In this document: piece after piece, positions 38,044 through 60,279 of the stretch | Numbering within the stretch: position 1 is the first letter of the stretch | Layout of the letters: every line of letters begins with the position of its first letter | NCBI RefSeq assembly: GCF_001447785.1 | Contig: NW_015166451.1 | Location: 279,030-343,029 of the forward strand | Length of the DNA: 64,000 bases | Source: Gekko japonicus | Taxonomy: Eukaryota | Reading direction: 5' to 3' | The notes under the pieces: generated by a model | What the model was told of the DNA's origin: nothing | What the model saw: the letters and a program-made list of their open reading frames with translations, nothing else | Database searches by the model: none | Translations under genes and position numbers: made by a program

Positions 38044-38722
38044 TAGAATCACAGACTCACAGAGCTGGAAGGGGCCAAACAGGCCATCTGGTCCAAACCC
38101 CTGCTCAATGCAGGATCAGCCTAGAGCAGTGATGGTGAACCTTTTAGAGACCGAGTGCCCAAACTGTGACCCAAAACCCACTTATTTATCGCAAAGTGCC
38201 AACACGGCAATTTAACCTGAATACTGAGGTTTTTACTTTAGAAAAAACAATCCATACATTAACTTAAGATGATCCAAACATAGTGAGGAAAGCAATCCCA
38301 AATGCTTTAATTTACTTAACATTATTTGGCAGAGAATTCAACACTTTAATAATGGTCTGGGCCTGGTTGGGGCGATGGCACGCTTGCCCACAGAGAGGGC
38401 TCTGAGTGCCACCTCTGGCACCCATGCCATAGGTTCGCCACCACTGGCCTAAAGCATCCCTGACAAGTGTTTCTCCAGCTGCTGCTTAAAAGACTGCCAG
38501 TAAGGGGGAGCTCACAACCTCCCTAGGCAGCTGATTCCACTGCTGCACAACTCTTACTGTAAAAAAGGTTTTCCTAATATCCAGCCAGTACTTTCCCACC
38601 CTTAACTGAAACCCATTATTGCGAGTCCTATCCCCTGCTGCCAACAGGAACAGCTCCCTTCCATTCTCTGAAAGCCCTTCAAATACATAAAGAGAGCAAT
38701 CATGTCCCCCCTCAACCTCCTC
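38044..38722 (-). mobile_element. CR1 LINE 3' fragment, interrupted by a hAT element
   Basis: Minus-strand CR1 ORF2 C-terminus (RTRNNGFQLRVGKYWLDIRKTFFTVRVVQQWNQLPREVVSSP). Confidence 0.9.
38127..38446 (+). mobile_element. Non-autonomous hAT element (CAGTGATGGCGAACCT TIR; hAT1/OC1-type)
   Basis: cagtgatggtgaacct / aggttcgccaccactg with TSD gcctagag/gcctaaag. Confidence 0.9.
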
Positions 38723-39083
38723 ACGGGGCTTGGTCTTTCCCCCCCACAATTGGCAAGATCAGATAATTTTACACAATCAATATATGAGGCTGGTCACTGG
38801 CTCCATAGTTTAGGTTGCAACAGTGAAGAGTAGCAAAGGAAGAAAACTTTACAAGACTCAAATATCTGATACTTTTAAAAAGTGTCACAAATTTTAGATG
38901 GCTCTTCTTTTGCAGACCTCATTGAGCATCCATTTTGGCTATTCTGTTTTGATTTTTCTCCTTTGCACAGATCTACCTCAGAGTAAGAATTATTGGAGTC
39001 CATTACAAGAACTGCTGTTACCTCACATCTGGAATTTCCCTTTTGCCAATACAGTTTCAATGGCTTTTAGTCTGAGAGATGTT

Positions 39084-39613
39084 GGCCCCGTTCACACGGA
39101 GCAGAAGCCACGCTAAATAGACGGAAGAGAGGCGGAGTTACCTGGCACGATCACACGGCAACATCTGGGGAGCGTAGAGCTCCCGTGGTTGAACTGTGGC
39201 GAACCGCCGATAAAACGGAGCAAAAAACTAGTACCTCGGAGGTACTAGTTTCCGGAAACTGCGGGGCAAGGGCGGGCGTCTGATCACATTTCCGGTGGCA
39301 TCCGGCGTTCGCCCATGTCCCCTTGCGAAGAAGGTTTTTTTCCCCCCCAAGTCTTCGTGGTTGCGCACACGCACCCAACGGAGCATGCTCATTCGTAGTG
39401 TACACAAAAAAGAAACCCAGTTCGCCGCGCCGCGCGCTTCTTCGTTGCGCGCAGGCATGTGTTGTGATCGACGCCTCTCCGTAACCACGGAAGCTCCACG
39501 GTACCTCCACAGAACCTCCACAGGAGGTATGATCACTTTACTGCGTGTTAGTTTGCCCCGGGGCAAACAGCCACACTTCTCCCCCGCAGTTTCCTGCGCG
39601 TGTGACCGGGGCC
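39084..39613. mobile_element. CpG-rich MITE, PIF/Harbinger-like
   Basis: TIR ggccccgttcacacg / cgtgtgaccggggcc with a 3-bp flanking duplication gtt. Confidence 0.75.
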
Positions 39614-40364
39614 GTTTTAAAGCAGAAAACTTTACATTTTTCAGGTGCTTCTTTTCAGTGTGTGAAATCCTGGATGTAAGCCAAAAAAGATACCATCAAT
39701 GTTCTTTTTTTCATCAGACAGCTTATGATACAGTAATAAAATGTGGGGAAGACAAAAACCAGAAGCCTAAAACCAAAGCTTGTTCACTTACAAGTCTAAA
39801 ACAGTCATTTACTCATCTTCAAATATATGTGATTATATAGAGGTATAACCTTTCTGTTTCCATATATATGGGCACTTGTTTTATACGATCACAGACACAC
39901 TTTTGCTAACTGTAAACCAATCTCTCTTTCACCTGTCTACCACCTAACAAAGAGAATGACAATAATGCTCCTTTGGAAAAAGGGGAGAGATAAAAGTAAG
40001 AACTCTTTTACAAATGCCAAATGCCTCACGTTAGTGGAAGGGTCTTATGCTAGGAATGTGAAAGCACCAATAGAGTGAAATGGCTGGCTCAAATGTAAAT
40101 AAATCTACACCATATTGCCGCAAGCAATTACATAAAATATTTCAGATGTACTGATACAATGATGCCTTTCATCTTTCTTAGATACAATTCTGACTGGCAT
40201 CCTAAACGAAACTGAGACAGACTCAGCTGCCCCTAAGTGCGGGTTCAACAGGCTTGCTAGCAACAAAGAGCCTGGCCATGGGAGAAACTGTGACCTGCTG
40301 AGGCACCAATTCTGAGCCCAATTTGCAACACATTCCCGTAGCCCACCAACTCAGCAATGACCGA

Positions 40365-40717
40365 ACTCTAAATAAGTGGGTTCTAGATCAAATCAAGTGA
40401 ACTCTAAATTAGTGGGTTCTAGATCATATCAAGCCTGAACTCTCCCAAGAAGCTCAAATGACCAGACTGAGACTACTGCACTTTGGTCAAACGATGAGAA
40501 GACAAAAGTCATGGGAAAAGACTATCATGCTAGGAAAAGTTGAAAGCAGTGGGAAAAGAAGAAGACCCAACACGAGATGGATTGTCTCAATCAACGAAGC
40601 CGTGGCCCTCAGTTTGCAAGACCTGAGCAAAGCTGTTAACGATAGGATGTTTCGGAGGTCTTTAACTCATAGGGTCGCCATAGGTTGGAAATGACTTGAT
40701 GGCCCTTAACACACACA
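40365..40717 (+). mobile_element. Degenerate RTE/BovB-related 3' fragment
   Basis: RLRLLHFGQTMRR..WEKTIMLGKVE..RRRPNTRWI; includes a ~36-bp local duplication. Confidence 0.8.
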
Positions 40718-41599
40718 AAGCTACCCTCTAATCAATGCCCAGTCACCCAAATCTGCGCAAGCTTTTGAGTTTCCCAGAACTCTTCATCAGCCTGTACGGT
40801 CAATATAATGAAGGAGGAGGGAGAGAACCTATAGTTTCAGGGCATGGTGGAATTATTACCATGCCTGCAGTTTCTAGAGCAGGGGTGTCAAACTCATTTG
40901 TTATGAGGGCCAGATCTGACAGAAATGCTACTTTGTTGGGACAGGCCATTTATGCCATAATATACTAGGTACCAGAGATATAAACTTTGTAAGTGACACA
41001 GGCAAACCCTGAGAGGTGGCCAGACTGGTCAACTGGCCCCGGATGACAGGGTCCTGTCTTAGGAGGAGGGGGATCTGAATCAAGCTCTTCCGGATCCCCC
41101 CCACCCCAGTTCTCATCTCTCTTGCGTCTCCCAGAGAAACGGTGGAGTTGAGGGAAGAGGAAGACCTGACAGAGAGGCCGTTTCCGATACCTCAAGGGGG
41201 TGCTTTTTGACTTCCGGCAACCACTTTTCCTCACAGGCTGCAAACAGGTGGGGGGGGGGGAGAAGCGAGGTTGCCATTCCCCACCCACCCCAACACTCAC
41301 TCTGCCTCCCGATTCTGTGACTGTTCAGACGCACCGTGGCATCAGTGCCCCTTTTCCCCTTTGCTCCTCCACCCACTTCCGAGGCTGGGAGGTATATTCC
41401 CCTCAGAGCAGCATGCACAAGACAGCCCAGTTGCCTCCCAAGCCACATGTTGGCCCTCCTCCTCCTCCTCCCTTCCCCACTGCCCCCGTCCGTCAGCTAA
41501 CTGCTGCTCTATGTGCCTGCTCTTGGTTGCCATTTGAAAAATGCGAAGCCAGTTGGTTGCAGTGCTGGCAGCACTGGCCACTCTCAACGCCAAACTGGA

Positions 41600-42300
41600 C
41601 AGTGTTCAAAAACAACTGAATCAAATGGATAAAAAAACCTCAGTAACTGAGAAAACATTGAAAAAAATGGAAAAACAGACAGAGTATCAACAAGAGAGTA
41701 GATGAAGCAGAGAAAGAAAGATCCTCCGATAAAACACAATTAATACAGCTCCAGCTGGAAAGATCTACATATGTTTTATGCTTCCATGGGATCCCTGAAG
41801 AGAAGAACAAGGACTTAAAAGAACTTTTGGCGGAGGCCTTGGCTCCATTAATGGATTACAAATAGGAAGACCTATTGAAAGAGATGGATGTAGCCTACAG
41901 GACCAGATTTTATAAAGAAAAATAAACTCCCAGGGGAAACCTATTTAAAATTCACAAAATGATCTACCAGAGAACTGGTGTTAAAATTTACAATGGGGGA
42001 ACCCTTAAAAATTAAGAATGAAGAGATAAAAATACTAAAAGACATTCCCTTTGAAGTCAGAAAACAGAGGAAAGTATACAGGATGCTTACTCTCACTCTG
42101 TAAAAAAGGGGGGGGGAGTACCATACAGATGGTTATTCCCAGAAGAACTGAGCTTCAGTTATCTGGATAAAAAAATACAAAATTGATTCTTTTCGAAAAG
42201 CGGAAAAATTTATGGACCAAATGTTCAACTCAAAATATAAGAAGAAAGAAAAGAACTCAAAACCAGATCAGGAGGAGGAGGAAGAATCCTACTCACAGGA
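41600..42300 (+). mobile_element. Degenerate L1-clade ORF1 remnant
   Basis: A-rich coiled-coil-like region, then ...FHGIPEEKNKDLKELLAEAL..., KILKDIPFEVRKQR, YRWLFPEEL, with frameshifts. Confidence 0.6.
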
Positions 42301-42325
42301 TTCAAAAAGCACTACTTCCACATTA

Positions 42326-42600
42326 GAGCCAGTTTGGTGTAGTGGTTAAGTGTGCGGACTCTAATCTGGGAGAACTGGGTTTGATTCCCCACTCCTCCAC
42401 TTGCACCAGCTGATGTGACCTTGGGTCAGTCACAAGCTCTGGCACAGCTGTCCTCGAAAAAGAGCAGTTTGTGTCAGCCCCACCCACCTCACAGGGTGTC
42501 TGTTGTGGGGAGGGGAAGGGAAAGGAGTTTGTAAGCCGCTCTGAGACTCCAAATGAAGGGTGGGGTATAAATCCAATCTCTTCTCTTCTTCTTCTTCTTC
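42326..42600 (+). mobile_element. Full-length Squam3-like SINE
   Basis: agagccagtttggtgtagtggttaag head and (ttc)n tail. Confidence 0.9.
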
Positions 42601-44189
42601 AAAATTGTTAGATAGTGCTTCACAATCCAAAGCTGTGTGCAGAATTCCTAGTATAATGCTATGGGATTTTATTTTATATTATAACAGAGTGATGCATCTC
42701 AGCTGTTCACTTCCATTTCTTTGTTTTTTGGCAATGGTGATGGGAATGAGCAAACGATGCACAATAGAGGCAAGAAAGTCCAACTCCTTGCAGTCGTGGC
42801 TATTCTGGTGGTCAAATGGGAAATCCATGGAGAACTCTTTGACTCCATGGTTTACAAATTGCCTATTCCCCTCGTAAAATGCTATAAAAATGGCAAGAGC
42901 CAAAAACGCACTCCATTAAACATTAAACAGTTTCTGAGAAATGTGGACAAGCTCTGTAGGAAGGAACTAATAAAACTGCCAGACAGACATCTCTAAAGAG
43001 AAAAAATGTAAAGATACAATGGCAAAGATTTAAAATGATGATCTATAAATTCACCCACATATTATATGCTATAGCTGGAAAGTCAGAAAATTGGATGCTC
43101 TAATTTGTTAAACATTCAATGAGAAATCTGGACAACTCATAACCATTTGAGAAGATCCTGTTAGAGCAAGATGAATTCAAGGGGAAGATCTGGTTCGAAA
43201 AGTAAATTGAAGCCCTGTTTTGATTCCAGGAGACGGATGATGCTAGAAAAATAACGATGTCATTTTCACAAAGATTATTTTGTAGTCTCGTGTAAAAAGC
43301 CAAAGAAACCCCAGTTATTAAGTTCTATAGAGCACCACTATCAACACCAACAGGATGATGGATTAAAATACTGCTCTTAAAAAAAACAACCCAAACAAAT
43401 GAACACAACTCCAATAAATATGGAGACAAAGTTCACAATGAGCCTGGCTGCCAAATCACGCATCCAGTAAGATCTCTGTTACCATACTCCACTGCACTGA
43501 AGGAGGGGGGGACGGGGCTATAAAAGGAAATGAAGACTAGGATCCATGTTGGATTGCTGACATTAGTCTACAACCCTATTTTAATAACCAAAAAAGTATT
43601 ATAGTCAGCTCTCCGAAACACTGTTAAAGATGGGCAACAATATAAACATCATTGAAATCAAACTACTCAATAATACTATCTGTGATGCCATGATAGAATC
43701 ATGAAAATATATTGGCAGGTGCCCTTATAAGTCATAAGCACCCAAACCATCATTAAAATGGATAGCATTTGGCCTGTATTTCTTAGGTCAAATGATGGAA
43801 AACAGCTTGTGGAAACAGTTGATGAAACAGATGTTTTCTCTCCCTTTTCCTTCTCCAGTGAGTCTAGAAAATTCTCTAAGGTATCACAAAATATATCGCA
43901 GAATGGGAAGATCCAGTGAGTGGGAGCGGGGAACTGGGTGAAAATGCCGCCTTCTCCCCACTGTTGCATCCTACTAAAGGTAGAGGAAGGTGCAGAAAGC
44001 TCACAGAAGCTCATGGAGTGTATCTTTACTCAAGATCTAACCCCCCTTTCTGCAGCTGTGTTTACTGTATTATTGGATGAACTGTGGATTTTCAAAAAAA
44101 ATATCTGGATACACTTTTACGATTCTAATATACTCCATTTTTGAGAACTGTTTTCTGAACAGCAGAAAAGAACAAGCACCTTAAAGATG

Positions 44190-44705
44190 AACAAAATTCT
44201 TGCACCCCCTCAATATGCTTCACAATTTTTGTTAGTTTTTTTGTTGACATTTATTTTCAGTCCCGCTACTTGACCATATTCTTGAATCCTTTCTTTTAGT
44301 TTAACGGCTACTTCCATCGGTTGTTCCATAATAAATGCAATATCATCCGCAAAAGCTAATAATTTGTATTTGTTTCCTTTCAATTTTAGTCCAATAATCT
44401 CTTTATCCCTTCTTATTACATTGTTTAATACCTCTAAGGCTAGGATAAATATAAGAGGTGATAAAGGGCAGCCTTGTCTAGTCCCCCCTTTTGAATCTTA
44501 ACATTATTTGTCAATTCGCCATTCACCATTACTCTTGCTCTTTGTTCATTATATATAGCTTGAATCATCTTAATAGTTTTCACCTGCTTCCACCATTCTC
44601 AATGTCTCTATAATAAATGGCCAAGTAACGTTGTCATCAAACGCTTTCTCTGCATCCAAAAATACCAGGGCCAGTTGCTTACCATGATGTATTTCGTAAT
44701 ATTTT
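44190..44705 (-). mobile_element. L1-clade ORF2 reverse transcriptase fragment
   Basis: Minus strand reads LVFLDAEKAFD..., GTRQGCPLSPLIFILALE, YKLLAFADDI. Confidence 0.9.
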
Positions 44706-44756
44706 GTTAGTTTTTAAGTTGCCACTGGACTCTTGCTCTCTCCTGCTGCTATAGAC

Positions 44757-44850
44757 ACAGCTACCCATCTTGGTTTCTGAACAGTGGCTTACAAATTCTT
44801 AAACAGCTACCCATCTTGTTTTCTGAACAGTGGCTTACAAATTCTTAAAC
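44757..44850. repeat. 46-bp tandem duplication
   Basis: acagctacccatcttg(g/t)tttctgaacagtggcttacaaattcttaa occurs twice. Confidence 0.9.
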
Positions 44851-45988
44851 ACACTGTACCTAAAGCGCAAACTCCATGATAAATTCAGAATATGCATCTG
44901 ACAACCCCAGTATCATTCAGGCTTAGGAAGAGGCAACTGGGATGGTGTGGCAAGGGAAGCAAGCACACAGGCTTAAAGCCTGGCCATAATTTTACTGCGT
45001 GTAGAGGAGATAGCAATGCAGCGGAGGAAGTAACAGCCCCTTAATAGCAGCATGTAAGAACATGTGCTTCTCCTCTAAAAATATACCCATAAAATTAAAA
45101 AGATCAATCAACCCAACGATTTCTTGTCTATTAAAATGCATTTGCCATATTTAGGTAACTACTACTTTGATTCATTTTGTCATCAGTAGACAAGCACTCC
45201 CTATTGATTTTCAAAGCTGTGCAAGCGCCACGTTAATCAAAAGGACAAATTCCCACTGATTAGCTGTGTCTGTTAGCTCTGGTACATACCACTGAAGAGT
45301 AATAAAAGAGCTGAGGATGAGAGGGGCTGGGAGACAGCTGGAAGAATAAGGAAAGGGATGTGGGTTTAGGCAGAAAGCTTGTCTAGGCGAGAAGGCAGGA
45401 GGAAAAATTATTTGGATTTTCACCCAGGATTTTAAAAAAACCCTATTCACTGTAAGGACTATAATGAAGGATCTGTGCAGTTTCTACTTATATATATATA
45501 TATAAAAAGCTGGAAGGGAAAGGGTGGGTGGAATTGAAGGAAGATTAGTCTAGCTTTCCACTTGTAAAAACTATACTCTAAGCTACATTTACTTGCACGC
45601 TAAGTTTGATAGACCTTAGTTCCAAGCATCCCATTTCTGGATTTCTTCCACAAAACTATTCTATTTCTAAAACACAGTTGTAGAGTCGTATGGCTGTGTT
45701 TTTCAAATGGAGACTGCAATGATTCCATCACAGAATAAAAAAAACCCCTTCATCCTATGTTGCCTGCCTGCACAATCCCTCTCCCAACACAGCAGCAAAT
45801 AACATTTAAAGGAGAGTGACAAGAGAACTGAGCCAGTGTGCCCACCAGGCAAATGAGGTATCAACTAGTCCTCCACCCCCAGATTTGCGTGCATGAAAGT
45901 CTTCCACACTTAAGACAAAATTCACAGTGCAAAACTTCGCAGATAACATACCCAATTATGACAGCTGCAATCTTTATTTCACTTCCTT

Positions 45989-46360
45989 CAAATTCAGATT
46001 TGAAAATGTAGGCTCCATTTTGCATTCTAGGCAGTTACAGAGCACTTTCTGTCCCCTCCCTTCTGGCCGTTTCCTCTTCAGCCCCCACGGCTTTCACCCC
46101 CTTTCCCTTGCCCAGCTGATCTTGTCCTTGCTTTCAGCAGCTTCGTCTCTGCCTTCTTCCTCCAAATTCAGGTTTGAAAACGTAGGCTCCATTTTGCATT
46201 CTAGGCCAAATGCCATTTTTAAAAGGTCTGCTGCAGTTACAGAGCACTTTCTGTCCCCTCCCTTCTGACCCTTTCCTCTTCAGCCCCCACGGCTTTCACC
46301 CCCTTTCCCTTGCCCAGCTGATCTTGTCCTTGCTTTCAGTAGCTTCGTCTCTGCCTTCCT
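45989..46360. repeat. Tandem duplication (174-bp first copy; second copy with a ~27-bp insert)
   Basis: caaattcag(a/g)tttgaaaa.. starts at 45989 and again at 46163. Confidence 0.9.
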
Positions 46361-46791
46361 CCTACAACCTGCTTTGCTTAGTAAACATTCTGGGAACTTG
46401 CCAGGTACACGAGATTGATCTGGAATGGTGTGTTTAAATCCCATTCTTAAAACCAGTGTTTTAGAGCAAGAGGATTCCCCAAGTGTTTCATAAGTGACCA
46501 TATCAAGTTGGAGGCTACTGGATGCTACAAGACCTTTTTGAACAATTATGCTAGCAGCGGGTTGGGGAAGTGGGAGGAATTGGTCTGCTAGCTACTATTA
46601 TGATATAAATGACAGCCAGTGGGGTACAGCAGTTGAAGTGTCGGGAAAGGATCTGACAGAGCCAGGTTCAAATCCCTACTCTTCCATGGAAGCTGCTGGA
46701 TGACCTTGGGCACATTCTTAGCCTAACCCACCTCATAGAGCTGTAAGGATAAAATGAAGGAGAAGAGAATGATGTAAACTGTTTTGGATCC

Positions 46792-47514
46792 TGTCCAGCC
46801 ACAGGCATGGCTGGCCCTTACTCCAACACCCCTGACACCACCACAAACCCAACAATCCCTCCAGGCCCCGCAGTGACTGCATCAATTTCCCAGGGCCCCA
46901 ACGCAGCCAGGCCGGGTTCTCCACAGAGCAGGGGAGAGATGCAAGGAGCCCTGGGTCCCACCCCGTGCCATCATCCAGCCCAGGGCCCTGAAAGCTGAAG
47001 TGGCCAGGAGTTGCACTGGGCAGGCCAAAGGCCACCAGGCCACAGAATGGCTGGCTGGCTGACACAACCAGCATGCACAGCAGGGTGAGGCCCCATCTGA
47101 GAAGGGAGCAAGGCACAACACATGCAGCAGGGCCTGAAACAGCAAGTGCCAGTGCAGATGGGTGGGGCTCACAGAAAGGAAGGCGATGGGGGCTTAAATG
47201 GGGAGGCAGGGCCAGAGGGCCAGTAGAGGGGTGGAGGCAAAAATGAGGGGGAGGGCTATAAAAGGGGGAAGCAGACGGCAGGTTATGGAAGAAGTGGCCA
47301 GACTGCTGGGCAGAGCAGGAGAGAGAAAGAAAGTGCTCCAGAGCCCAGCAGGTTGAGTGAGATGACTCACCACAGCCGGACCTGCTATTCTGAGACCTAG
47401 CCAACTGTAGTCTCAAGCCCTCCCGTCAGAGAAGACGAAAGCGGGAGGCGCCCCTGGGCTCCTGTGCTACCTCATCAGGGCAAGACCATCAAGGGGTGGA
47501 GGTGGAGTGTGATA
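46792..47514 (+). mobile_element. Solo LTR (Gypsy-like) inserted in an old SINE
   Basis: Begins tgtc, ends gtgata (decayed gtgaca); 5-bp TSD gatcc (46787-46791, 47515-47519); tataaaagggg at about 47258. Confidence 0.75.
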
Positions 47515-49616
47515 GATCCCCCACTGTGAAGCAAATACATATATTCAGCTTCCACACAGAAACACCAGATAGCCTTTTGAAAACGGGCATGAATGGAAAC
47601 CTGTATCTGATGTGGTGAGTTTTCACCTTTAAAAGCTCATACCTCAAGAAATCTTGTGCTACAGAACTAAATCCTGTTTCTCAATCATAGCCCATCTTCT
47701 CCCCGCCCACACACACACTTCCAACAAGATTCCTGTTCCTCAGGGGTCTTGTTATCTCAATGCTGAACTCCAAGTATGATGTCCTCCAAACAAACACCAT
47801 ACATAATACCAACATGAAATGTCCAAGTATATGCATAACACCATTCTACCTTTTGCAGATTCACTGTCCAAAACATTTTTACAATTTATAATTTACTTTA
47901 CATTGTTCTTATTGAAATTCTTCTGAAGTCTGGTCACCAGAACACAACCCAGAGTAAATATTAGCAAGGAAATACTCTGGTGTGTCATTCTTAGACATGC
48001 TAAGGTTATGCTGCCCTCTAGTGTTTGGCTGTGAACACGTGTCGCTGAAGGAAAAAAATAAAACAAAAACAGTTTGCCACGTGGGGCAGTTTTCCATCTT
48101 CTTAGCACTGTATTTGCTCCTGATAAGCATCATTTGGACTGTCATGATAAAACTGTTGCTGCATGACTTTAATCACAAGCATACTTAACTCTGCTACTGT
48201 TAGTAGTAGCTCACCTAAAAAGCCACCAGTACACCAGGCACCGGATAACTTTATGAGCAAAGTCTGTTTCAACAGGATACAACAGATACATTTGTCCTTT
48301 TGTACAAGAGTGCTTCAACTCAAGACCAAAACATCAGGCAGAGCAGCTCTAAGGTACAGTCAGCATATATACAGCTCCTGATGCCATGGTACACTTGTCT
48401 GTCTAATCATCTAGGGAGCTAGCACAGTATAGTTTGGAAGAAGAGGCAAGAACATAAATTGGTTTTGAGGAGGAGGAGGACAACAGGTGTTATTACAGAT
48501 GTAAGACCCTGAGTCAGTGAAGTAGTCTTGTACTGAGTTAAACTTAAAGCAGCCTACTCTGACTGGTGGGGAGTGAAAACTCCTTACTGGGATCACTTAT
48601 GAGCTGGTTGTGGCTTAACAGCACATACAAACTTACAGTGACTGGTTACAGCTCTCTAGGGTCCCAGGAAGATCTACTCCAGCCTTCCTTAAAATTTTTT
48701 TTGATTTTGTACAGTTTTAAGAAAAATAATTGAAGAGTCATAAAAGGGCATGGTATTTTTGCAGTGACCTTCCTAGGAAGATCAGTTTTAGCCACTATCA
48801 TTTCTGCCTTTCCTGTAGCAGATCTATTCTTGCAGGGTTTTCTTTAAATTATGTTTGTTACCCTTTCTGGCTCAACCCAGAAATTGCTCTAATTTTAGGT
48901 GTATTGTTTTTAAAGTTGTGCTTTTATATTGCTTATACGCATCTCTTTTGTAGAAAAAACTGATGCACTGGAAAAGGAAGAGATAATGGGTGATGAGCAA
49001 GCTGGCATCAGAAAGGGTCACTCTTGTGTGGACCACTGCTTTATGCTGGCCTCACTGATAAGCAAATATGTGTTACACAAAGTCTTGTGTGTTTGACATA
49101 GGTGTGAATATGTCAGGGTTACATAGTCACCCAGCCACACAGTTCCAGCTTTGAGAAATACAATGTACCTAGTGCCCCCCCTTCCTTCCTAATTCATTGA
49201 AGCGACAGCAGTGGGAAGTTTCCAAAACAGGCATAGTTATTAGTTGTCCGCCTATACTAGTTGAAGGGTTGTCTTGAGTTAGACCTAGGGAAAGGGTATG
49301 AGGCTGATTTCATTCAATGCTAGTTGCAGGGGGGAAAAACACAGCACAACAGTTATTGTTGGAACTTCTATTTCAACTCTAACAGAGCAAATTCCTTGAG
49401 TGCATAAAAATACAGAAGACTAGCTGGCACTAGGAATGGGAGCTGACTTGCATTGCCACGTTTCCCGAAATCAAGGTGAAGCATAGGAAACCTGTGAAGA
49501 TAGACACCATTCTGGGATCTGTGATGCCGTTGCTTCCTATCTGCTTTGCTTTCTTTACCAGTCCTTTTAGAGCAAGTCCCCCCCCAACATAGCGTTTCTA
49601 ATGTAAGTGTCCTTTC

Positions 49617-51179
49617 CTACTCTTCACAGTCTGTCACCAGAGTCCACACTTGCCGTACAACCTCCGCAAACTCCCTCATTGCCTCAGCATGAAGGTTGGG
49701 GTCTTGTGCCAAGTGCTTAAAAAGATTGACAGGTACAGCAGTGCGAAGAGCCTTGGGCATAGGTATCTGAATGGGCAGGGAGACATTTCCAATCAGGAAG
49801 TGCTTAAGACCTTTCTCCTGCAGGGCAGTATGCATGAATAAGAGGATGTCCTGCAGCCTTTGCACAATATCTTCACGGGCCCAGTCTGAGAGGGGCCGAA
49901 AGAGCAGGAGATGCATCAGACAAGTCTTGTAATGGTAGTCAGTGAGCACAGGGTTCTTCCCATCTGATGGGTTGGACTCTTTGAGGTAGAGGATGATCTG
50001 TAAACATTTCAGGTGGCAGCTCTCCTCTGGGACTTGCTGGTTTACCCTTTTGAAAAAGAGCAGCTCCTGGATTGCAAAGGTCCTCTGCCAAACTGTACCA
50101 GCTGAACGGTCCATCTCAGCACCCTGGGTGGCCAGGAAAACTAAGCTGTCTCCTTGCTGGACTCCAAGTATGATGTCAACAGAGATTGTCTTTCCAGATC
50201 TAAATGCCAGGTTCAGCTTGCATGCAGTGTTGGAAGGCTTGGGCAGGAGATCAAGATTGTACTTATAACTTATATTTTTCCAGGCCTTCCTCACAAGACT
50301 CTGGAACCAGTGGATGGTTTTATCCACATCTAAGTGGGAGCTGGTACACAAAACATCCATGAGGAAGGCACCTTGCTTGTCTTCACTCAGCGTTTGCTCA
50401 GGATGATGAAGGAAGCATACCACATCTCCTCTTTCTCTCTTGCACACACACTCCATCTCCACCAAGATGTGTCCATGTTTGCTTGAGGTGCCTTCAGAAG
50501 CACTTGTTTCCAAATGGAAATAGTGTCCCTTGGGTGGCACTACCGGCACCAGTACACTGAATGCCTTGGTCTTTTCTTCTTCTTCTTCTTGTATGTGCCA
50601 TCCTTCAAAGGCACTGTCCACCCCAATACAGTTCACCAACAGAGGAAGGGTGTTCTGATAGGGAAGGTAATTCCGGCAGGCCTCCAGCAAGTCATTCACA
50701 AAGGACTCCACAAAATCGCACATATGGGTTAGGTCACTGGTGTCCACATCTGTGAGGCAGTCACAGAAAGCCTCTAGTACTTTTTGCTTGTTGCCACATG
50801 TTTCACTTTCCATGTCAGTATCCTCCTCCTCCTCTCTGTTGGTACTACTGAAGGTATCAGTGTTAGAATCATCACTGGGTTCCTCTTCCAAGGAGTATAT
50901 GTAGCACATCAAGAACAGAAGGCTCACATAGTGCCACACATCCCAGGTTTCATCATCCATAGGTTGATCAGTTGTAATCCAGTCTTTTGGAGTCTTCAGC
51001 GGCTCCAAGGTCCAGCCTTTCTGGTCAAACTCTGTCCGCAAGAGCTCCATTTCCTGTTTCATTCGCTCCTCATGGTCCTGGAGCCGGTTCAGCGTGGTCA
51101 AGTCTGTATGGTCACTGACGATCAAAGGGTGGTGGACCAGAGTTAGCACAGACAGGAAGATGAAAGGACCCCAAAACAT
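49617..51179 (-). CDS. ITPRIP/ITPRIPL1-like protein (signal peptide, coiled coil, TM, acidic linker, Mab-21/cGAS-like domain), single coding exon, 520 aa
   Basis: Uninterrupted ORF from ATG at 51179. Family motifs: CIGVDSAFEGW, VLVPVVPPKGHYFHLE, MECVC..CFLHHPE, LCTSSHLDVDKTIHWFQ, SCHLKCLQI, YHYKTCLMHLL, LKHFLIGN..P..I..P.....PVNLF. The exact paralog cannot be assigned. Confidence 0.9.
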   Translation of the reverse strand: MFWGPFIFLSVLTLVHHPLIVSDHTDLTTLNRLQDHEERMKQEMELLRTEFDQKGWTLEPLKTPKDWITTDQPMDDETWDVWHYVSLLFLMCYIYSLEEEPSDDSNTDTFSSTNREEEEDTDMESETCGNKQKVLEAFCDCLTDVDTSDLTHMCDFVESFVNDLLEACRNYLPYQNTLPLLVNCIGVDSAFEGWHIQEEEEEKTKAFSVLVPVVPPKGHYFHLETSASEGTSSKHGHILVEMECVCKRERGDVVCFLHHPEQTLSEDKQGAFLMDVLCTSSHLDVDKTIHWFQSLVRKAWKNISYKYNLDLLPKPSNTACKLNLAFRSGKTISVDIILGVQQGDSLVFLATQGAEMDRSAGTVWQRTFAIQELLFFKRVNQQVPEESCHLKCLQIILYLKESNPSDGKNPVLTDYHYKTCLMHLLLFRPLSDWAREDIVQRLQDILLFMHTALQEKGLKHFLIGNVSLPIQIPMPKALRTAVPVNLFKHLAQDPNLHAEAMREFAEVVRQVWTLVTDCEE

Positions 51180-51707
51180 CCTGACTTGCACCGGTTTCTA
51201 GAGAAAAACACTAAAGGAAACTATTCAAGCTGAAGTCCAAGGAAGACAATAGGCAAGGCTGTACTGCTGAAAGAAATTAAAATTCTTCACTCAGGATCAT
51301 GCCATCTGTATGAATAATATGGAACCTTATTTGATTAATTTTGTTCTAAGTCTGATAGTTGCAAGAAGGCATTCCACAGGGAGCCGAAACCCCACTCCCA
51401 GCTTCAGTCAGTTTTCAGCTTTTAATTTCAACAGGCAATGCCACTTCCTTTAATAAGGAAGTAACTCTTCCTTATTAAAAACCTGAGCCTCTCCAAGCCG
51501 TTCTGGCTTCTTTAAACCTTGCTGGCTGCTACTGACTGCAACTTCAGCCTCTCCCATTATTACCTGGTCGTCTGTGAAGTCACATCTGTCCTGAAGTCAT
51601 AGCTGTGGGTTGTCTGTGTATTTTTAAATTTAACAGGCATTGCTACATATTTTAACTCTTATCTTAGACATATCGTGGAGACAGAAAGGGGGTGTACAAA
51701 CCAACTG

Positions 51708-52026
51708 GGAGGAGGAGGAGAGATTGGATTTATACCCCGCCCTTCACTACCCAAGGGAGTCTCAGAGCGGCTTACAAACTCCTTTCCCTTCCCCTCCCGA
51801 CAACAGACACCCTGTGAAGTAGGTGGGGCTGAGAGAGCTCTGACAGAAACTGCTCTTTTTCAAGAACAGCTGTGCCAGAACTACGGCTTGCCCAAGGTCA
51901 TCCAGCAGGTGCAAGTGGAGGAGTGGGGAATCAAACCCAGTTCTCCCAGATTAGAGTCTGCACACTTAACCACTACACCAAACAGTGGTTTGCACTGTGT
52001 CTGCTCACTTAACCACTACACCAAAC
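51708..52026 (-). mobile_element. Squam3-like SINE with duplicated head segment
   Basis: Full-length match; cacttaaccactacaccaaaca is present twice. Confidence 0.85.
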
Positions 52027-52714
52027 AAATCCTAAACAGAGTTAAACCCTTCTACGTGCATTGAAGGCACTGGTTTTAGGAGGGTGTAATTGTTTAGAAC
52101 TGTATTGTAAATAACTTTACAACTATAGAAGCTAGAAATTTACGGTGTGTGTGAGAGATGAAGCTGAAATGTCTAATCCAGGGGTGTCGAACTCATTTGT
52201 TATAAGGGCCAGATCTTACATAAATAGGACTCTTTAAAACTGTTTTTTCCTGCTGCCATCTGGAAGCAAATTTCACATTTAAATTACTCTCTATGTAAAG
52301 TAGTCTCTCCTTTTGTCTGTCCTGAACCTACTGCCCACCAGTTTCATTGGATGCCCATGAGTGCTGGTATTTTGGGAGAGGGAGAAAAATTTCTCTTTGT
52401 CAACTCTCTCCGCCCCTTGCATAATTTTATAAATTTCTATCATGTTTCCTCTTATTTGTCTCTAACCTGTTCCAGGCTGCAGAGAAAACAAAAAAGGAGC
52501 TCAAGTCTCTCTTGTTGCTTCTCTAAATAATAACGGTCTTCCATCAACTCGCAACTGACTTGTGACGAACCCAGGACCATGGGGTTTTCAAGGCAAAAGA
52601 TGAGCAGAAGTGGTTTCCCACTACCTTCCTCTCCGCCCATGTGAAACTAACTTGCTCCATCCCTAAAGTTCTCTGTGTGTGCAAAAGAAGGGCAGGGGGA
52701 GGGTCAGTGGTGAG

Positions 52715-52991
52715 AGAAGAGATTGGATGTATACCCCGCCCTTCACTACCCAAAGGAGTCTCAGAGCGGCTTACAATCTCTTTTCCCTCCCCCTCCCCAC
52801 CACAGACACCCTGTGAGGTAGCTGGGGCTGAGAGAGCTCTTTCAAGAACTGCTCGTGAGAGACCCACTCTGAAGGAACTTGCAGATCACCCAAGATCACA
52901 CCAGCAGCTGCATGTGGAGGAGTGGGGAAATCAAACTCGGTTCTCCCAGATTAGAGCCCACGCTCCTAACCACAACACAAAACTGGCTCTC
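52715..52991 (-). mobile_element. Squam3-like SINE
   Basis: Full-length match to the other copies. Confidence 0.85.
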
Positions 52992-53537
52992 CAAAAATGG
53001 GTAAAACTTGAACAACAATGGCTAAAACTTGAACTTCTGAGTAGAGGAAGTGTCAGGTGGCAGATAAAGCACAGCCTGGACCATTCAGAAATTGTTTCAC
53101 AGAAGAGGTCGCCTTGAAGGAAGAGAAAGCAGCTTGACGAAGATGAAAAAATTCTTCAAGCATAGCATGGCAAACAGCGCTGAGACTTGAGTGGGAGGAG
53201 ATGGAGGGGTGACAGTAGATGAGTTTGTGCAGAAAACAGCAGGACTGAAAGGCAGTAGATTAGGGAAGAGGTTGGCATGCAGAGAAACTGAGAAGTGTGA
53301 AAAGTCATCGCATGGAAAGGCTCTCAGTGGCCTGGATGTGGGAGACAAAGGATAGGAAAGAATCAGATGTGGCTCCAGAGTTACATGGCTGCCCTTGCGA
53401 TGGTGACAAATGAGAATAATGAGTTCAGGCGCTCTTCTTTCAGTACCTTGAACTGGATACGCTTACAGGAAAATTCAGGTGAAAGTCTGGCAAGTCTATT
53501 CAAGAAGTACAGGGTGAAGGGAAGGATTAGCACTTAC

Positions 53538-53598
53538 TGCTGTTGGATCCTTTCTATGAAGCTGAGTTGCTGTAACTTGCGTGAAACCACCAGGATAT
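53538..53598 (-). CDS. MRPL13: MRPL13 exon 4
   Basis: (G)YPGGFTQVTATQLHRKDPTA; tgtag| and |gtaagt; 61 nt; ends in phase 0. Confidence 0.97.
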
Positions 53599-54594
53599 CT
53601 ACAATACAAAAGATATAAATAAGCAAATTTAAAAAGCCTGCATCTTGAAAAATAAAAACCTGTGTATGAACCAATGCTGGCTTCTATATGGATCAAGTGC
53701 TTCACAGGAAGGACAGGTCTAACAACAGCAGAATTTATGTTTAAAGGCCAATGAGATACCGTAGTGGTCATATGGCCATGAATGTAAACGGTGGCTGAGT
53801 GAGAAGGCAAGTGCGTGCACCAACTCTCCTTCCCTGCTCACAACTTCATCTCTCCTTCCCTTCACCCTCTTCCTTCTCCATCCCCTCTCTTTGCTTACGC
53901 CCCAATCTTGTCCCACCCCAAGCTTCGTTTCCCTTGGCTTTCCCTTTCTTCACATTTCCCCTGTTAGGCTGTCTGTTTTGCTGTGAATCAGAAAAGGAAT
54001 ATGAAACACATTAATCACTCTTTGTTTTTCTGATATATCACAAATTAAGGAGCAATTAAGGAATCCATGTACCCTTTAATGTCATTTCACATCATGTCCT
54101 CTGAACACCAGAATCAAAGTTCAGGGTGTCATTTGAGTATACACGTAAAAAGGAGGGACCAGAAATGACTGGTGGGACACAGGTGCCATGCAAAAATCAG
54201 GTCTGCTGCCTGACACGTAAAAAAAATATATTGTAATTCCCCTGACCACCACTATAGTCTTATAGTCCCAAGGTATGGATAGAAGGTGCATAATACATTA
54301 TCCTTGCTGAAGCTAAGCATATATGGGACTAATCTGTACCTGAATGGATGATTTCTTAGGAACCTATGTACACTGTTTTAGATTCCGTGACAGAAAAAAG
54401 GTGGAAAGTTAACACTAAGTAGATGAATAGATGTAGATGACACTCTGCTTTCTGGGGCCTAGCCTGGAAAAATGTGATGCCATGATGTACTTAGGATGGA
54501 TGAGAAGGAGGAACTCTGTGTTCTATAGGGGAAGTCTGCTGGTAAGGATGCTTGATTAAGGGTGGGGGCATATAAATGTTAGGAACCTGGAGCC

Positions 54595-55560
54595 CAGGGG
54601 TCTTTTGGGGCCGGAGTGCACCGGAGCACCGCTCCGGGAGCCCAGGCGCCGGAACAAATGGCGGTGGCAACAAGCCCCGCCCCCAGCTCCCCACGCTGCG
54701 GCCCCCTGCCACTTCCCCGGGCCAGTGCTGGAGCGCTGCGGCTTGTGGGAGGCCAGAAGAGGGCCCCCCACTGCCTCCCTGGGCCAGCGCCGGAGCGCAG
54801 AGGCCCCCCCGCCGCCTTCCAGGGCCAGCGCCGGAGTGCTGCGGCCAATGGGAGGGCAGAAGAGGGCCCCCCCCACCGCCTCCCCGAGCCAGCGCCAGAG
54901 CGCTGCGGCCTGTGGGAGGGCAGAAGAGGCCCCCCCACCGCCTCCCAGTGCCAGTGCCGGAGTGCTACGGCCCGTGGGAGGGCAGAAGAGGCCCCCCGCT
55001 GCCTCCCCAGGCCAGCGCCGGAGCGCTGCAGCCCTGGGAGGGCAGAAGAGGCCCCCCACGCCGCCTCCCGGGGTAAGTGAGGGATCCGTGGGGGGTCGGA
55101 GAACCTCCCCCCATCTCTTTGCCCTCTTTCTTTCCCTCCTTTTCTTTCTCTTTCCCNNNNNNNNNNNNNNNNNNNNNNNNNNNNCCTTCTTCCCTTCTCG
55201 CTCTTTATTTCCCTCCTTCTTTCCTTTTCTTTCTTTTCCTCTTTCCTTCTCTTTAACTCCTTCGTTCCTTCTCTCTACACTCTCTCTCTTTCCTTCCCTC
55301 TTTCCTCCTTCTACGGCCCAACTCTAGTGAGAAGGGGTTTAAACTTCTCTCTTCGCTTCCCCCCCCCCCCGCTGGCTGGGGAAAGGAAGGGGAGGCTTTT
55401 GAATATGCCTCCCCCCCTTTTCCTTCCCCTTCTGACATCACTTCCGGTGATGTCAGGGGCCGTTGCATATGCTAATGAGTTATGCTAATAGCCTAGTAGC
55501 TCATTAGCATACCATATGTTAATGAGCTCCTCCAACTCTTTTTCTAGGAAAAGACCCCTG
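54595..55560. mobile_element. Young hAT-type non-autonomous element with an internal GC-rich minisatellite
   Basis: Perfect 12-bp TIR caggggtctttt and perfect 8-bp TSD ctggagcc (54587-54594, 55561-55568). Confidence 0.9.
54718..55072. repeat. ~60-bp GC-rich minisatellite, about 6 units
   Basis: Unit approximately gccagcgccggagcgctgcggcctgtgggagggcagaagaggcccccccaccgcctcccc. Confidence 0.9.
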
Positions 55561-56212
55561 CTGGAGCCATTCCCACAACTGCCAGCTCAAGCTTAGTTAT
55601 GGATGTATGGAGACTACATTATAAACTGAGAATGCAATCACCTGGACATTTAGTGCATTTCCAGCAAATCCTATGCAGAGTTAATTCTATGCAGGGTTTA
55701 GACTGGAATGAAATTAATCTGCAGTTTTCAGAGGAATCTAAAACTGAGGCTGTAACACAGAATGTACGACTGAATGGGGACAGCAAAAGTATGGAAACAT
55801 TTTCTAGCTCCTTTTCTGTTTCATCCATCAGTCAAAGCCAACAACAAGTGAATGTTTACAGCTTTTCTGTTTTTCAAGGATACAATGAATAATTTCTTTA
55901 TCCCATCCTCAAAGTTGTGTATGTTTGTTTTCTAAATAGGACATTATTTCTCACTTTAGGTCCCAGTCAGTGATGACTTGCAAGTATTACAGCAGTATTT
56001 AAGTACTGTGCAATTAAAAAAGAAAAAAAAAGAAAAATTAATTTCAAGCAAGTATGCAATCTTTTAAAAGAAAAAGCTAGTTAAGGAAAACTCAGCGCAG
56101 GCTGAAACTAGATAATTGTGTTAGACATAGAAGGGCAGGGGGTTTCCAACTAGGTCTGTAGGGTTCCAGCCTGGGTGTAGCTTATTTCTACACTGCCATG
56201 TAGAACTATGGT

Positions 56213-56900
56213 TGTCACATGAGCTGGATGACCCCTCGTCACTGTCGCTGGTCCCCTGCTGCTCCGACCTATAAGCCACCACAACCTGTCACCCGGGAAG
56301 TGGAAGAGGGGAACCATAGAGACCTCAGACAGTCGGGAGGGGAGGAGGTTACGTCACCACCCTTCATCATACACCCTTGGCATATTCAGGCTGCTCCTTC
56401 TCTCTCTCCCGCCCTTAGTGCCGCCAGTGCCGTTTCATCCTTCTCGGCCTCTGTTCCTGTTCCCCTTTTTATTCCTGCTCCGTGATACCTGCTCTGCCCG
56501 AAGTTCCACCATCCACCCACCACTTTGGCCCCGCCCTCCCTTCTTAGGCTAGGGCGCTGAGCTGGGGGCGCGGTCTCCTTCCGGTTCCCTCTCTCCAGCC
56601 CCAGCAGCTGTGCTCTCCTCACATCTCTCTCCCTTCAGCCAGCTTGGGGCTGAGGGCGTGACCTCGCGCCGGGCCAGCCCCCCGTTCCAGGACATCTCCT
56701 TCTGAAGCCGGGTCTCCACCACTGGGAGTCCGGCCCGGGCGCCTCGGAGGCATCTCCTTGGGTCCTGGGGACGACGGCGTTGGTGCGGCTGGTCGGCTCC
56801 AGGCCTCGGTAAGTGCTGCTGAGGTCGGGGCTGGGGTGGTTGGCAGTTCCCGAGTCCCGAGCGGCAGAGGCCAGCCCTGGGGAGGTTCGCCCTCGGGACA
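56213..56900 (-). mobile_element. CpG-rich solo LTR (Gypsy-like)
   Basis: tgtc...gaca ends; 5-bp TSD atggt (56208-56212, 56901-56905). The minus strand has a GC box followed by aataaaaaggg. Confidence 0.8.
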
Positions 56901-58820
56901 ATGGTATGATATGGTTATGGACCATGGCTTCCACTGGGCAGTGCTTCAATAGCACAGGGATGATTCTGCATAGAAACATGATTTGCTTTGGGAGGGGAAA
57001 AGAGTAAATGGTTAAACCTTTGATTCAGGTGGGTTGCCGTGTTGGTCTGAAGCAACAGAACAAAGTTTGAGTCCAGTGGCACCTCTAAGACCAACAAAGT
57101 TGAATTCTGAATATAAGCTTCTGACACTCCTATCTTCTTTAAAAGTACACAGCTTCCTTTTCAAACAGTTCAGTCCTACACAGTTACACAGAGTTACACA
57201 GTTTCTAAGACCACTGACTTCAGTGGACTTAGAAGGGTGTAACTGTGCTTATTGCTTACTGTAGGTGACTTTGAAAAGAAATTCAATACAAATTATAAGC
57301 TACCGCATTGGGCATTGGATGGATCCAAAAATAATAAAAATATGGTCAAGTGAGCAATCAAATACTGGACAATTTTTGTAAAGCATTAACTTTGTTAGAA
57401 CAATAAAGATATCTGTATGGAGAACTGTAGCATAAATACTTAAATAAAAAAGTCAAACATAAAATACTTTATACAGGTTTGATACTTCTGCTCCTTATAA
57501 AAGCAGCTTAGTTAACTGTTATTGTGGATCAAACTTTTAAAAAGCGTATTGACAGCTTTTAATAAGGTTAGTTCCTGTATGGAGATGCTGGCAAGTTATA
57601 TTAGTCAGTGACGTGGGACAGAAAATTTTCTGATGCTGCATTTTTCCATGGACAATTTTCTGCCTCACGTATGAAAATACAGTCTTTTTATCTATCAGAG
57701 TTGCTATGTTGCAAATTATTCTATGGAAAATTTGACAGTCAGTCGTAGGGAACCAGAATCGATTGCTCATATTTTGCTTCGATGTGGATTTTATGTCAAA
57801 ATACGGGATGTCTTAATTAGCCCTATTTTGCATAACAGACATAGCCTCCCAGATGTGAGACTTGTTTCCCTTCTCTTATTGGATCAGTGTTCCCATATTA
57901 TCCATTCAGTAGTGAGGTTTCTTCTGATTGCTATGAGGATCGGGGAATATAAGATTAAAGTTCTGGAGAGATGACTGATTTTGATTGTACTCTGTATATT
58001 TAAACACTGGTTTTGTTTGATTTTAATCTATGCCAATAAAGGTACTGAATGACAAAGGTGGAACATTTCCTGGCCCGCATATGTACATATAGCCAGTTTA
58101 TCTATGTCAACATTACTGTGCTGCAAATCAATCATGTCAGATATGCTATGTGCAGCATATGAAATATGGACAAATCCCAGTGACATTATTTAAATTCATC
58201 ACCGAAATTATTTAAATTTGAATTGGAAAATTTTCTTATTCGAATCCCCCCCCCAAACCCGACGTCACTGACAGCAGGTGGTGAGTAGAAGCTTTGCTAA
58301 CTTGCTAGATTTGTCCCCAACAGCTCCCTCACACTTCTGTATGGAGCACAGGTCCATCAGTGGTTATTAGCCACAAGGTATAGATAGGAACTCTCAGTCT
58401 GGGGCAAGTGATGCTCTGTATTCTTGGTGCTTGGGGGGGGGGAGTAACAGTGGGAGGGCTTCTAGTGTCCTGGCCCCACTGCTGGATCTCCTGATGGCAT
58501 CTGGTATTTTTGTCCACTGTGTGACAGAGTGTTGGACTGGATGGGCCACTGGCCTGATCCAACATTGGCTTCTCTGATGTTCTTATGTTAATGAATAACT
58601 CTACAAATAAATAATAAAGGAAAGCACAGGGGCACTCTTGACTTCCAGAAATATTTGACCACAATCAAATAACAGGTAATCAGCTGACAATATTTTGGCC
58701 ATTTGTTTGACAGACATGCAATCCTTTGTATGCCTCAGTGAGCTGTTTACCGTATTCGAATATTTGGCCAAAATACCAATTTGTTCAATATCTGTATTCC
58801 TAAAACTCTGAAACGCTTAC

Positions 58821-58914
58821 CCAGTATGTGACGAGTACACCTTCTGTTCCCATTTATTGCCAGAAAAAGCAATATGCCTTGTATTTATTACGACAGCATG
58901 ATCTCCAAGGTCAC
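58821..58914 (-). CDS. MRPL13: MRPL13 exon 3
   Basis: (S)[31 protein letters not shown]; 94 nt; ag/gt boundaries. Confidence 0.97.
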
Positions 58915-59117
58915 CTAATTTAAAAAACAAAAAAGGTCTTGGTTAATAAGATCACCTGTAACCTAAGAACTCTAATTATGCAGAACAACATTGTTAATGG
59001 TTCTCAGCATGAAATGATTCATACAAAATACCAGAAACATAAGTACTGTGCCGCAATGTCACACAAGCACTACAGTCCAGTTGGAGAGCACATTGCGAAC
59101 ACATAAGACCCACTTAC

Positions 59118-59241
59118 TTAGTGCGTGGTACACAGGCTTATGCTTCCCTTGAAGTATGATCTTGCACATTTCTGCAATTTTTCCAGGTGGCTGCATCTTT
59201 GCATCCAAGAGATACCAGGTTCGAGCAAATGTGGCCCATTG
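59118..59241 (-). CDS. MRPL13: MRPL13 exon 2
   Basis: [41 protein letters not shown]; 124 nt; ag/gt boundaries. Confidence 0.97.
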
Positions 59242-59381
59242 CTGAGAAAGAATCGGAGAGCCGTTAATGCAGTGAAACAGATATACTGTAACAAAATGGC
59301 CTAAATCCCATCATATTTTGCCTGATGCTTTGAAAATTACGAATTTAAGAGGTTTTTTTAAAAAATAACCTTGCTCACAAG

Positions 59382-59591
59382 CAATGTTCCCTCTAAGCCG
59401 TGGAGTCTTGTGAGCAAAAATTCTACTTTGTGAGCTACTGGCATTAAAGTTGTGAGCAAGCGATTTGGCTGCTACATAACTTAGTTTCCTCTACAGCCAT
59501 CCTTCCTGAGCTGAGACAAAAAAACATGTGTGAGCTGGAGGCTAAAAAATGGTGAGCTAGCTCACACTAACTCAGCTTAGAGGGAACACTG
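59382..59591 (-). mobile_element. hAT-type MITE (CAGTGTTCCC family)
   Basis: TIRs plus a perfect TSD ctcacaag (59374-59381, 59592-59599). Confidence 0.9.
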
Positions 59592-59744
59592 CTCACAAGA
59601 TCTAAGTCACAAGATGTGCAACAGAGCTGCTGCATTAAAGTACAATATAGGGGCCTACACAGCAACTTAATGACTGAAGATCTTTTGACTTCGCAAAGGC
59701 GTAGAAAAGGGGAAAAGCAACAAAATTATCACCTTTAAGACAAG

Positions 59745-59875
59745 CAAAGTTTTATTTCAGGTATGAGCTTTCATATTCATGCACACTTCGTCAGGTGTCA
59801 TCGTCTGAAGAAGTGTGCCTGCACAGGAAACCTCACACCTTGAATATAAAACTTTGTTGGTCTGAAAGGTGCCAT
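59745..59875. mobile_element. Penelope-like inverted remnant with hammerhead-like cores
   Basis: Inverted repeat carrying CTGANGA...GAAA on both strands. Confidence 0.55.
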
Positions 59876-60127
59876 CGGGCTCTAACACACATATAATAGT
59901 GAGAGATAAAATGCACAGAAAACAGATACCAACGCCGAAATTTAAATCGGGGGCATTAAAAAATAAAATAAAAATAAAGCTCTGTTCGCTCGGTATCGAA
60001 GTGCCATCGGGCTCTAACACACATATGTGAGAGATAAAATGTACCGAACACAGATACCAACGCCGAAATTTAGATCGGGGGCATTAAAAAAAAAATTAAA
60101 AATAAAGCTCTGTTCGCTCGGTATCGA
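59869..60127. repeat. Tandem duplication (~132-bp period) in MRPL13 intron 1
   Basis: gtgccatcgggctctaacacacatat.. starts at 59869 and again at 60001. Confidence 0.92.
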
Positions 60128-60252
60128 GCCCACTGAAGGCAACGGGGCCTACTCCCGAGTAAACATCACGGGATTGCAGCCGGGGGGGGCCCAGCAATTT
60201 CCGAGGCGAGTCCCCGAGGCGAAGAGCGGAGGGGGAGAGGAGGCGCCCTTAC

Positions 60253-60279
60253 CTGCGCGGCCTTACTGTAGCTCGACAT
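60253..60279 (-). CDS. MRPL13: MRPL13 exon 1 (MSSYSKAAQ)
   Basis: gccATG context; 27 nt; donor CAG|gtaagg (phase 0). Confidence 0.95.

Follow-up and report, generated by a model that had tools for sequence, protein, structure and literature searches.

An ITPRIPL1 duplicate in intron 4 of Gekko japonicus MRPL13 and its probable out-of-frame trapping of exon 4

The DNA analyzed was a stretch of 64,000 nucleotides (nt) from Gekko japonicus (contig NW_015166451.1, positions 279,030 to 343,029), referred to here as the window. Its minus strand carries MRPL13, the gene for the mitoribosomal protein uL13m, and intron 4 of this gene (17.4 kb) houses, on the same strand as the host, an open reading frame (ORF) of 520 amino acids (aa) assigned to ITPRIPL1. 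We consider it probable, at about 0.75, that this same-strand duplicate traps MRPL13 exon 4 out of frame and that the 520-aa protein comes from an unspliced transcript of its own. The duplication and its direction, the inheritance of the splice acceptor, two out-of-frame joins, and unspliced contigs are demonstrated by the data below. The exon trap is real but minor and of a known type; a fusion protein and its targeting to mitochondria are unsupported. The original prediction made from this DNA was that the nested gene serves as an alternative terminal exon of MRPL13. This was borne out insofar as two joins of exon 4 were found in sequencing run X2, but both are out of frame and would give no fusion. 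The sites concerned are as follows.

51179-49617, minus strand: ITPRIPL1-like ORF, 520 aa, with a Mab-21_C domain and a hydrophobic N-terminus
51197..51199, minus strand: in-frame acceptor, inherited; its use was seen in none of the runs examined
51210..51212, minus strand: acceptor 51210, with its AG at 51212-51211; joined to exon 4 in X2, contig depth 4.7
51114..51116, minus strand: cryptic acceptor 51114 within the ORF; joined to exon 4 in X2, contig depth 2.45
53598-53538, minus strand: MRPL13 exon 4, 61 nt, cumulative 306 nt, ending in phase 0
36179-36093, minus strand: MRPL13 exon 5, to which exon 4 is normally joined, with RNA junction reads

Seven of the 22 runs listed were aligned, first to the repeat-rich stretch 36000-54000 and then to 49000-51700, and five of them (X1, X2, X10, X15, and X21) were informative at the acceptor. 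X20 and X22 were aligned to the repeat-rich stretch only, and among the joints listed for them (110 more were unlisted) nothing clearer than low depth was obtained at the site. The join of exon 4 to exon 5 was dominant in X21 (58 junction reads) and in X1 (contig depth 145), and 4 and 10 such reads were counted in X20 and X22, respectively. Trapping was observed in X2, where an identical run of 28 letters terminates two contigs; these letters are the 3′ end of exon 4 and are unique in the window. The resulting joins, 53538->51210 and 53538->51114, are both canonical GT-AG. An out-of-frame AG 13 nt upstream of 51197, giving an exon start at 51210, had been named beforehand as a site whose use would speak against a fusion; this AG is present, and it is where exon 4 enters in X2. 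The contig entering there passes 51197 unbroken, and the X2 depth is nil above 51274. The two junctions that had been proposed were not found: 53538->51197 was absent from all contigs and reads of the five informative runs, and no 60253->51197 junction was seen in the same runs, as judged from loose ends at the acceptor since exon 1 lies outside the aligned stretches. X21 gave 54 reads on 49000-51700, none of which had 20 or more unlike letters, and its depth stops near 51190; with 0 trapped reads against 58 exon 4-to-5 reads, the upper bound for trapping in X21 is near 5%. It is hardly credible that the X2 joins arose from noise in splicing or from assembly debris and have no significance for the locus. 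They come from one run at low depth, and X21 has none, but they are two independent canonical joins from the same annotated donor, and their summed depths roughly equal the depth of the ORF contig in X2 (8.5).

The two joins enter the same wrong frame and share a TGA at 51114-51112. The predicted product of the 51210 join has 134 aa, comprising uL13m residues 1-102 and 32 further residues, and that of the 51114 join has 102 aa, the TGA following exon 4 immediately. In both, the L13 domain would end at about profile position 88 of 119. In the 51210 form, the ITPRIPL1 ATG would be overlapped by an upstream ORF; in the 51114 form, this ATG would be skipped. Neither form should yield the 520-aa protein. 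No truncated uL13m isoform from Gekko was present in the annotation among the 120 of 144 matches listed, nor in a 3-member cluster. Codon comparisons of the nested copy with its parent were made outside the following tract.

50052..50426, minus strand: 375-bp tract matching the assembled parent copy exactly; RNA contigs differ from it at 10 sites

The 520-aa ORF looks to be under selection. The ratio of nonsynonymous to synonymous substitution rates (dN/dS) of nested versus parent copy was 0.54 (Fisher p=0.004, 355 codons outside the tract), a value that blends both lineages. The frame is intact in both Gekko species, G. japonicus and Gekko kuhli, the first 39 residues and the start codon being kept in both, and in neutral simulations the copy stayed stop-free in 0.7-5.6%. 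Since the ORF looks selected, some mRNA likely presents the ATG at 51179, and a transcript that is unspliced and has its own start is the likely source of the protein. The tract itself is likely a collapsed assembly of two paralogs, with gene conversion as the alternative. Its 10 differing sites were found in RNA contigs of three studies, 9 of them being common to all three, and with site 50521 added, 4/7 amino-acid changes match the nested copy of G. kuhli.

Two further features bear on the ends of such a transcript.

51460..51606, minus strand: 146-bp element, putative promoter of the nested copy
48168..48173, minus strand: ATTAAA hexamer, candidate poly(A) signal, the sole AATAAA or ATTAAA within 2.1 kb past the stop

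X1 yielded a contig of 922 nt (50429-51350, depth 9) and X10 a contig at 51092-51341, both unspliced over the acceptor; their ends lie at most 9 nt apart and about 110-120 nt behind the 146-bp element. X15, whose kind of library is undefined, gave one unspliced piece over the whole stretch that reaches a repeat at about 51737. Coverage runs to about 48260-48610 in X15 and X1, fading near the candidate poly(A) signal. A private spliced upstream exon (possible donor near 51564) was rejected, as no contig joins it and depth was 0 at 51366-51700 in X2, X10, and X21. The unspliced contigs might instead be explained by a promoterless nested copy, in which case they would be MRPL13 RNA that retains the intron and is cleaved at the poly(A) site of the nested gene, with the protein arising by re-initiation or from downstream ATGs. 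This is consistent with all 5′ entries in X2 coming from exon 4, with the X15 piece being unspliced through to the repeat, and with an in-frame ATG at 51062, 50 nt past the shared TGA, that would give 481 aa lacking the hydrophobic N-terminus. The explanation was nonetheless deemed quite unlikely, given that the X1 and X10 contigs both end near 51345, that the repeat-free intron bins of X1 held 0-1 versus 5-13 over the nested gene, and that the N-terminus is conserved in both species from the start codon through residue 39. Moreover, re-initiation after 100 or more codons is inefficient.

The features of the in-frame acceptor that had been described for the window were all confirmed. The minus strand reads tttcctttagtgtttttctctag and then AAACCG, with the AG at 51198 and the first exonic base at 51197; the acceptor lies 18 nt ahead of the ATG at 51179, in phase 0, and is stop-free up to that ATG. 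MRPL13 exon 1 (27 nt) and exon 4 (306 nt cumulative) both end in phase 0, and the computed lengths of the joins, on paper, are 628 aa for exon 4->51197 and 535 aa for exon 1->51197. The TAG of this acceptor doubles as the in-frame stop that bounds a 526-codon open frame. The phase match at 51197 was taken to mean little because, when 4 donors were paired with the 9 AGs from 51305 to 51114, products longer than 500 aa resulted in 5/36 pairings, and every one of the 4 donors tested has at least one such AG. Nor is the acceptor special to MRPL13, because the parent copy, which lies on a different contig, has the same pyrimidine tract and TAG/AAAC. The mitochondrial targeting that had been suggested as a gain from MRPL13 found no support, as exon 1 adds nine residues and its join was unseen.

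The skipping of 51197 may be explained by the AG at 51212-51211. The parent has CA at the same place, and the contigs of X1, X2, X10, and X15, from four studies, agree with the window here. The AG-free zone of 51197 is thereby 13 nt, compared to 23-44 nt for the five MRPL13 acceptors tested. According to two reports on human data, an AG newly arising within such a zone will commonly become an acceptor itself or silence the existing one (PMC9284458; PMC10655562). X2 uses 51210 without use of 51197, and the use of both 51210 and the downstream cryptic site 51114 would fit both effects. It is therefore likely that this AG was gained in the nested copy and outcompetes the inherited acceptor.

The origin of the nested ORF was deduced from comparison with the rest of the genome and with other geckos. 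In a Pfam scan, PF20266 matched above the cut-off (E=2e-9) and PF03281 below it. The best named matches of the protein are gecko ITPRIPL1 sequences (73-86%; 81% for Paroedura ITPRIPL1), and an ITPRIP-like gene elsewhere in the G. japonicus genome is only 38% like it, pointing to ITPRIPL1 rather than ITPRIP. A GAA expansion of 15 nt at 50580-50566 adds five residues (EEEEEK) in the nested protein only. The ITPRIP-like gene (G000:C12293:2592000-2594000) has an acceptor 13 nt before its ATG, and its assembled frame shifts near codon 100, possibly through an assembly error. The extent of the ITPRIPL1 duplicate and of a repeat within it is given below.

49578..52178, minus strand: duplicated block, from the parental ITPRIPL1 locus G000:C12355:149861-152195, 88% alike
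51710..52030, strand not assigned: high-copy repeat resembling a short interspersed nuclear element (SINE), absent from the parent, splitting the duplicated block

The block is 88% like the parent over 49578-51709 and resumes at 52030-52178; the repeat entered it after the duplication. The copy on C12355 is flanked by Cnd2 (NCAPH) matches at 119-131 kb and Sec63 (SNRNP200) matches at 214-230 kb, and the neighbors of human ITPRIPL1 we take to be NCAPH and SNRNP200. Since only the C12355 copy sits between these two genes, it was assigned as the parent and the window copy as the derived paralog. A Pfam scan around the parent, covering 116 of 186 open frames, found retro-element domains only, and the synteny was taken from the separate Cnd2 and Sec63 matches. 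G. kuhli also has both copies. A 15-protein tree groups the window ORF with the ITPRIPL1 portion of G. kuhli protein P0002 (100/99) and the parent with G. kuhli P0003 (100/99), and Paroedura, Heteronotia, Eublepharis, Euleptes, and Sphaerodactylus gave a single ITPRIPL1 match each. The duplication is therefore older than the split of G. japonicus and G. kuhli, and these comparisons make it likely to be confined to the Gekko lineage.

A processed retrocopy was also considered and rejected. The block contains the coding exon, the acceptor itself, and about 0.7 kb of noncoding parent sequence upstream of the acceptor, and the presence of this upstream sequence rules out a spliced mRNA as the source of the block. 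Neither a poly(A) tract nor a target-site duplication was detected at the block, just 9-10-mers at chance level, and its 3′ border is indistinct; likeness to the parent fades about 40 nt past the nested stop. By alignment with the parent, the 51197 acceptor is inherited from ITPRIPL1. An acceptor just ahead of the ATG appears to be the normal design of this family, as hinted by protein isoforms. Isoform X1 of Paroedura reads KYVQVR-M before the start, compared to KPVQVR-M in the window, and the isoform residues further upstream find their match in the parent, at 153754-153680, and none in the window; human ITPRIPL1 isoforms share DAEAS-M after differing N-termini. No parent contig was captured at 85% likeness in four runs, and use of the parent acceptor is implied by these protein N-termini.

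The 146-bp element occurs in three places only in a genome search, namely, window 51460-51606 and G000:C12355:153779-153924 and 151775-151916. One of the parental elements stands directly ahead of the stretch that matches the Paroedura upstream exon. The element is proposed as a candidate ITPRIPL1 promoter that was duplicated at the parent locus. Near 151640 on C12355, about 140 nt ahead of the acceptor, the parent has a good GT donor, where the nested copy has AT (window 51330). Should this GT serve as the donor of a short first exon in the parent, the nested copy would have lost its private donor, and such a loss would account for the unspliced nested transcripts.

An in-frame splice of exon 4, or exon 1, to 51197, producing a real uL13m-ITPRIPL1 isoform, perhaps in an unsampled tissue, was judged very unlikely. 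The site is in frame, its pyrimidine tract scores best of the candidate acceptors (0.85), and rare joins may be hidden by contig assembly. In addition, the submitted G. kuhli model P0002 (KAL8181699.1, 648 aa) combines the L13 and Mab-21 domains, demonstrating conservation of the nested layout. However, this model, which is flagged hypothetical and unverified, reads about 30 codons past the exon 4 donor, its linker beginning VSANPSL as window intron 4 does; the K-x-x residues of the -18 site are missing from it, and its entry point is closer to the ATG. In the window, the first part of intron 4, from 53537 to about 53460, resembles the P0002 linker by eye and ends in a GTAAG donor-like site, which the G. 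kuhli model likely uses. The public annotation of G. japonicus keeps a 179-aa uL13m and the 520-aa protein separate, the fusion would truncate the L13 domain near position 88 out of 119, and use of 51197 was seen in none of the five runs, exon 4 picking other AGs where it does enter the nested gene.

The favored reading, out-of-frame trapping beside an independent nested transcript, would be accounted for by the following events. A duplicate of the ITPRIPL1 coding exon landed in the same orientation in MRPL13 intron 4, bringing the splice acceptor of its parent. The AG at 51212-51211 would be a later change in the nested copy, falling within what had been the AG-free zone of the inherited acceptor, and would win as the AG nearer the branch point, silencing the in-frame site at 51197. 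Exon 4 is spliced to 51210 and to 51114 in X2, which would give uL13m stubs of 134 or 102 residues, and the trapped mRNAs would end at the nested poly(A) site as mostly nonproductive leakage. The 146-bp element would act as the promoter of the copy and give rise to an unspliced ITPRIPL1-like mRNA. A more speculative and rather unlikely extension is that selection defused an in-frame trap of an essential mitoribosomal gene through the two-letter gain of an AG, which put exon 4 splicing out of frame and so prevented a uL13m-ITPRIPL1 fusion, and kept the trap as a tissue-dependent switch to truncated uL13m, the avoidance of the -18 site in the G. kuhli model being a second such repair.

Several points weigh against the favored reading. 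Both joins come from a single run, with contigs at depth 2-5; X2 is RNA by presumption, no listed run being on record as RNA, and the trapped share in X2 lacks an exon 4-to-5 denominator. Assembled contigs lose rare forms, so low-level use of 51197 is possible, and the libraries are without clear strand. X15 coverage goes through the proposed promoter, and contig ends are no proof of a transcription start. The dN/dS value, as stated, mixes the two lineages. The polarity of AG versus CA was read from the parent and may be the reverse; 51210 itself has a further AG 10 nt upstream; and no strict yTnAy branch-point motif was found within 60 nt of either AG.

The remaining coding exons of MRPL13 were located as follows.

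60279-60253, minus strand: coding part of exon 1, 27 nt, 9 codons, phase 0
59241-59118, minus strand: exon 2, 124 nt
58914-58821, minus strand: exon 3, 94 nt
32175-32054, minus strand: exon 6, coding

The last exon lies near 11218, and all coding-exon boundaries are GT-AG. The translation of exons 1-6 is identical to the named G. japonicus uL13m (P0243) at 171/171 residues. MRPL13 (60279, minus) stands head to head with an ATG at 60508 on the plus strand, with about 230 GC-rich nt between them, and from its N-terminal sequence this neighbor is presumably MTBP. Intron 1 contains a 128-bp tandem duplication (59869-60127) and intron 3 a GC-rich 62-bp tandem array (54799-55073). The SINE-like repeat is present three times in intron 4 (42325-42600, 51710-51990, and 52713-52990), one copy being inverted, and flanks the nested gene; these copies attract very high RNA depth that originates elsewhere.

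The locus represents a young, dated case of a housekeeping gene meeting a same-strand duplicate with a working acceptor, and with the parent sequence at hand, the changes behind the outcome can be traced to single letters. It also carries a warning for annotation, in that an in-frame AG before a nested ORF, or even a fused model in a sister species, is no proof of fusion. The in-frame join, if true, would be a new chimeric mitoribosomal protein, and the RNA points away from it. A literature search, with supplements outside its scope, returned no publication on this MRPL13/ITPRIPL1 locus.

As described in PMC2268245, the 3′ terminal exon trap CSB(ERCC6)-PGBD3 is likewise a single-exon, same-strand intronic ORF with an acceptor just before its ATG, into which the host donor splices and for which a separate solo transcript is likely. 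Its join is in frame and abundant, with the fusion protein detected, whereas the MRPL13 joins are out of frame and minor or absent in most runs; its insert is a transposon with a target-site duplication, whereas that in MRPL13 is a duplicate of a host gene. At MRPL13, an acceptor does stand directly upstream of a same-strand intronic ORF and the host splices into it in one of five runs (X2), but the sites used give 134 and 102 aa rather than the in-frame fusion ORF of such a trap. Nested genes can interfere with their hosts, according to PMC3192792, and YY2 in MBTPS2 and GALNT4 in POC1B are same-strand nested genes that act as gene traps, according to PMC10901741. These resemble the gecko gene in that a nested intronless coding sequence draws splicing and ends the host transcript early. 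They are called retrogenes there and are repressed by SAFB via A-rich sequence (PMC10901741), whereas the MRPL13-nested copy keeps parental upstream noncoding DNA. SAFB-type control of the nested copy was unsupported, its sequence being 26.9% A and not A-rich.

ITPRIPL1 has a Mab-21 fold and is named CD3L1 in a preprint (bioRxiv 10.1101/2022.02.25.481189). In Paroedura and in human, protein isoforms imply the same single coding exon entered just before the ATG. Each other gecko gave one match, in contrast to the second, relocated copy nested in Gekko. The ancestral position is held by the C12355 copy and not by the window copy, and the removal of introns that marks a processed retrogene is contradicted by the retained acceptor and approximately 0.7 kb of upstream parent sequence. 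Human AG-gain alleles are alike in that splicing moves to an AG located 13 nt ahead of the established acceptor, shifting the frame. Those are disease alleles, whereas the gecko AG is a difference between paralogs that RNA contigs from four studies share, and it may do no harm or even be of use.

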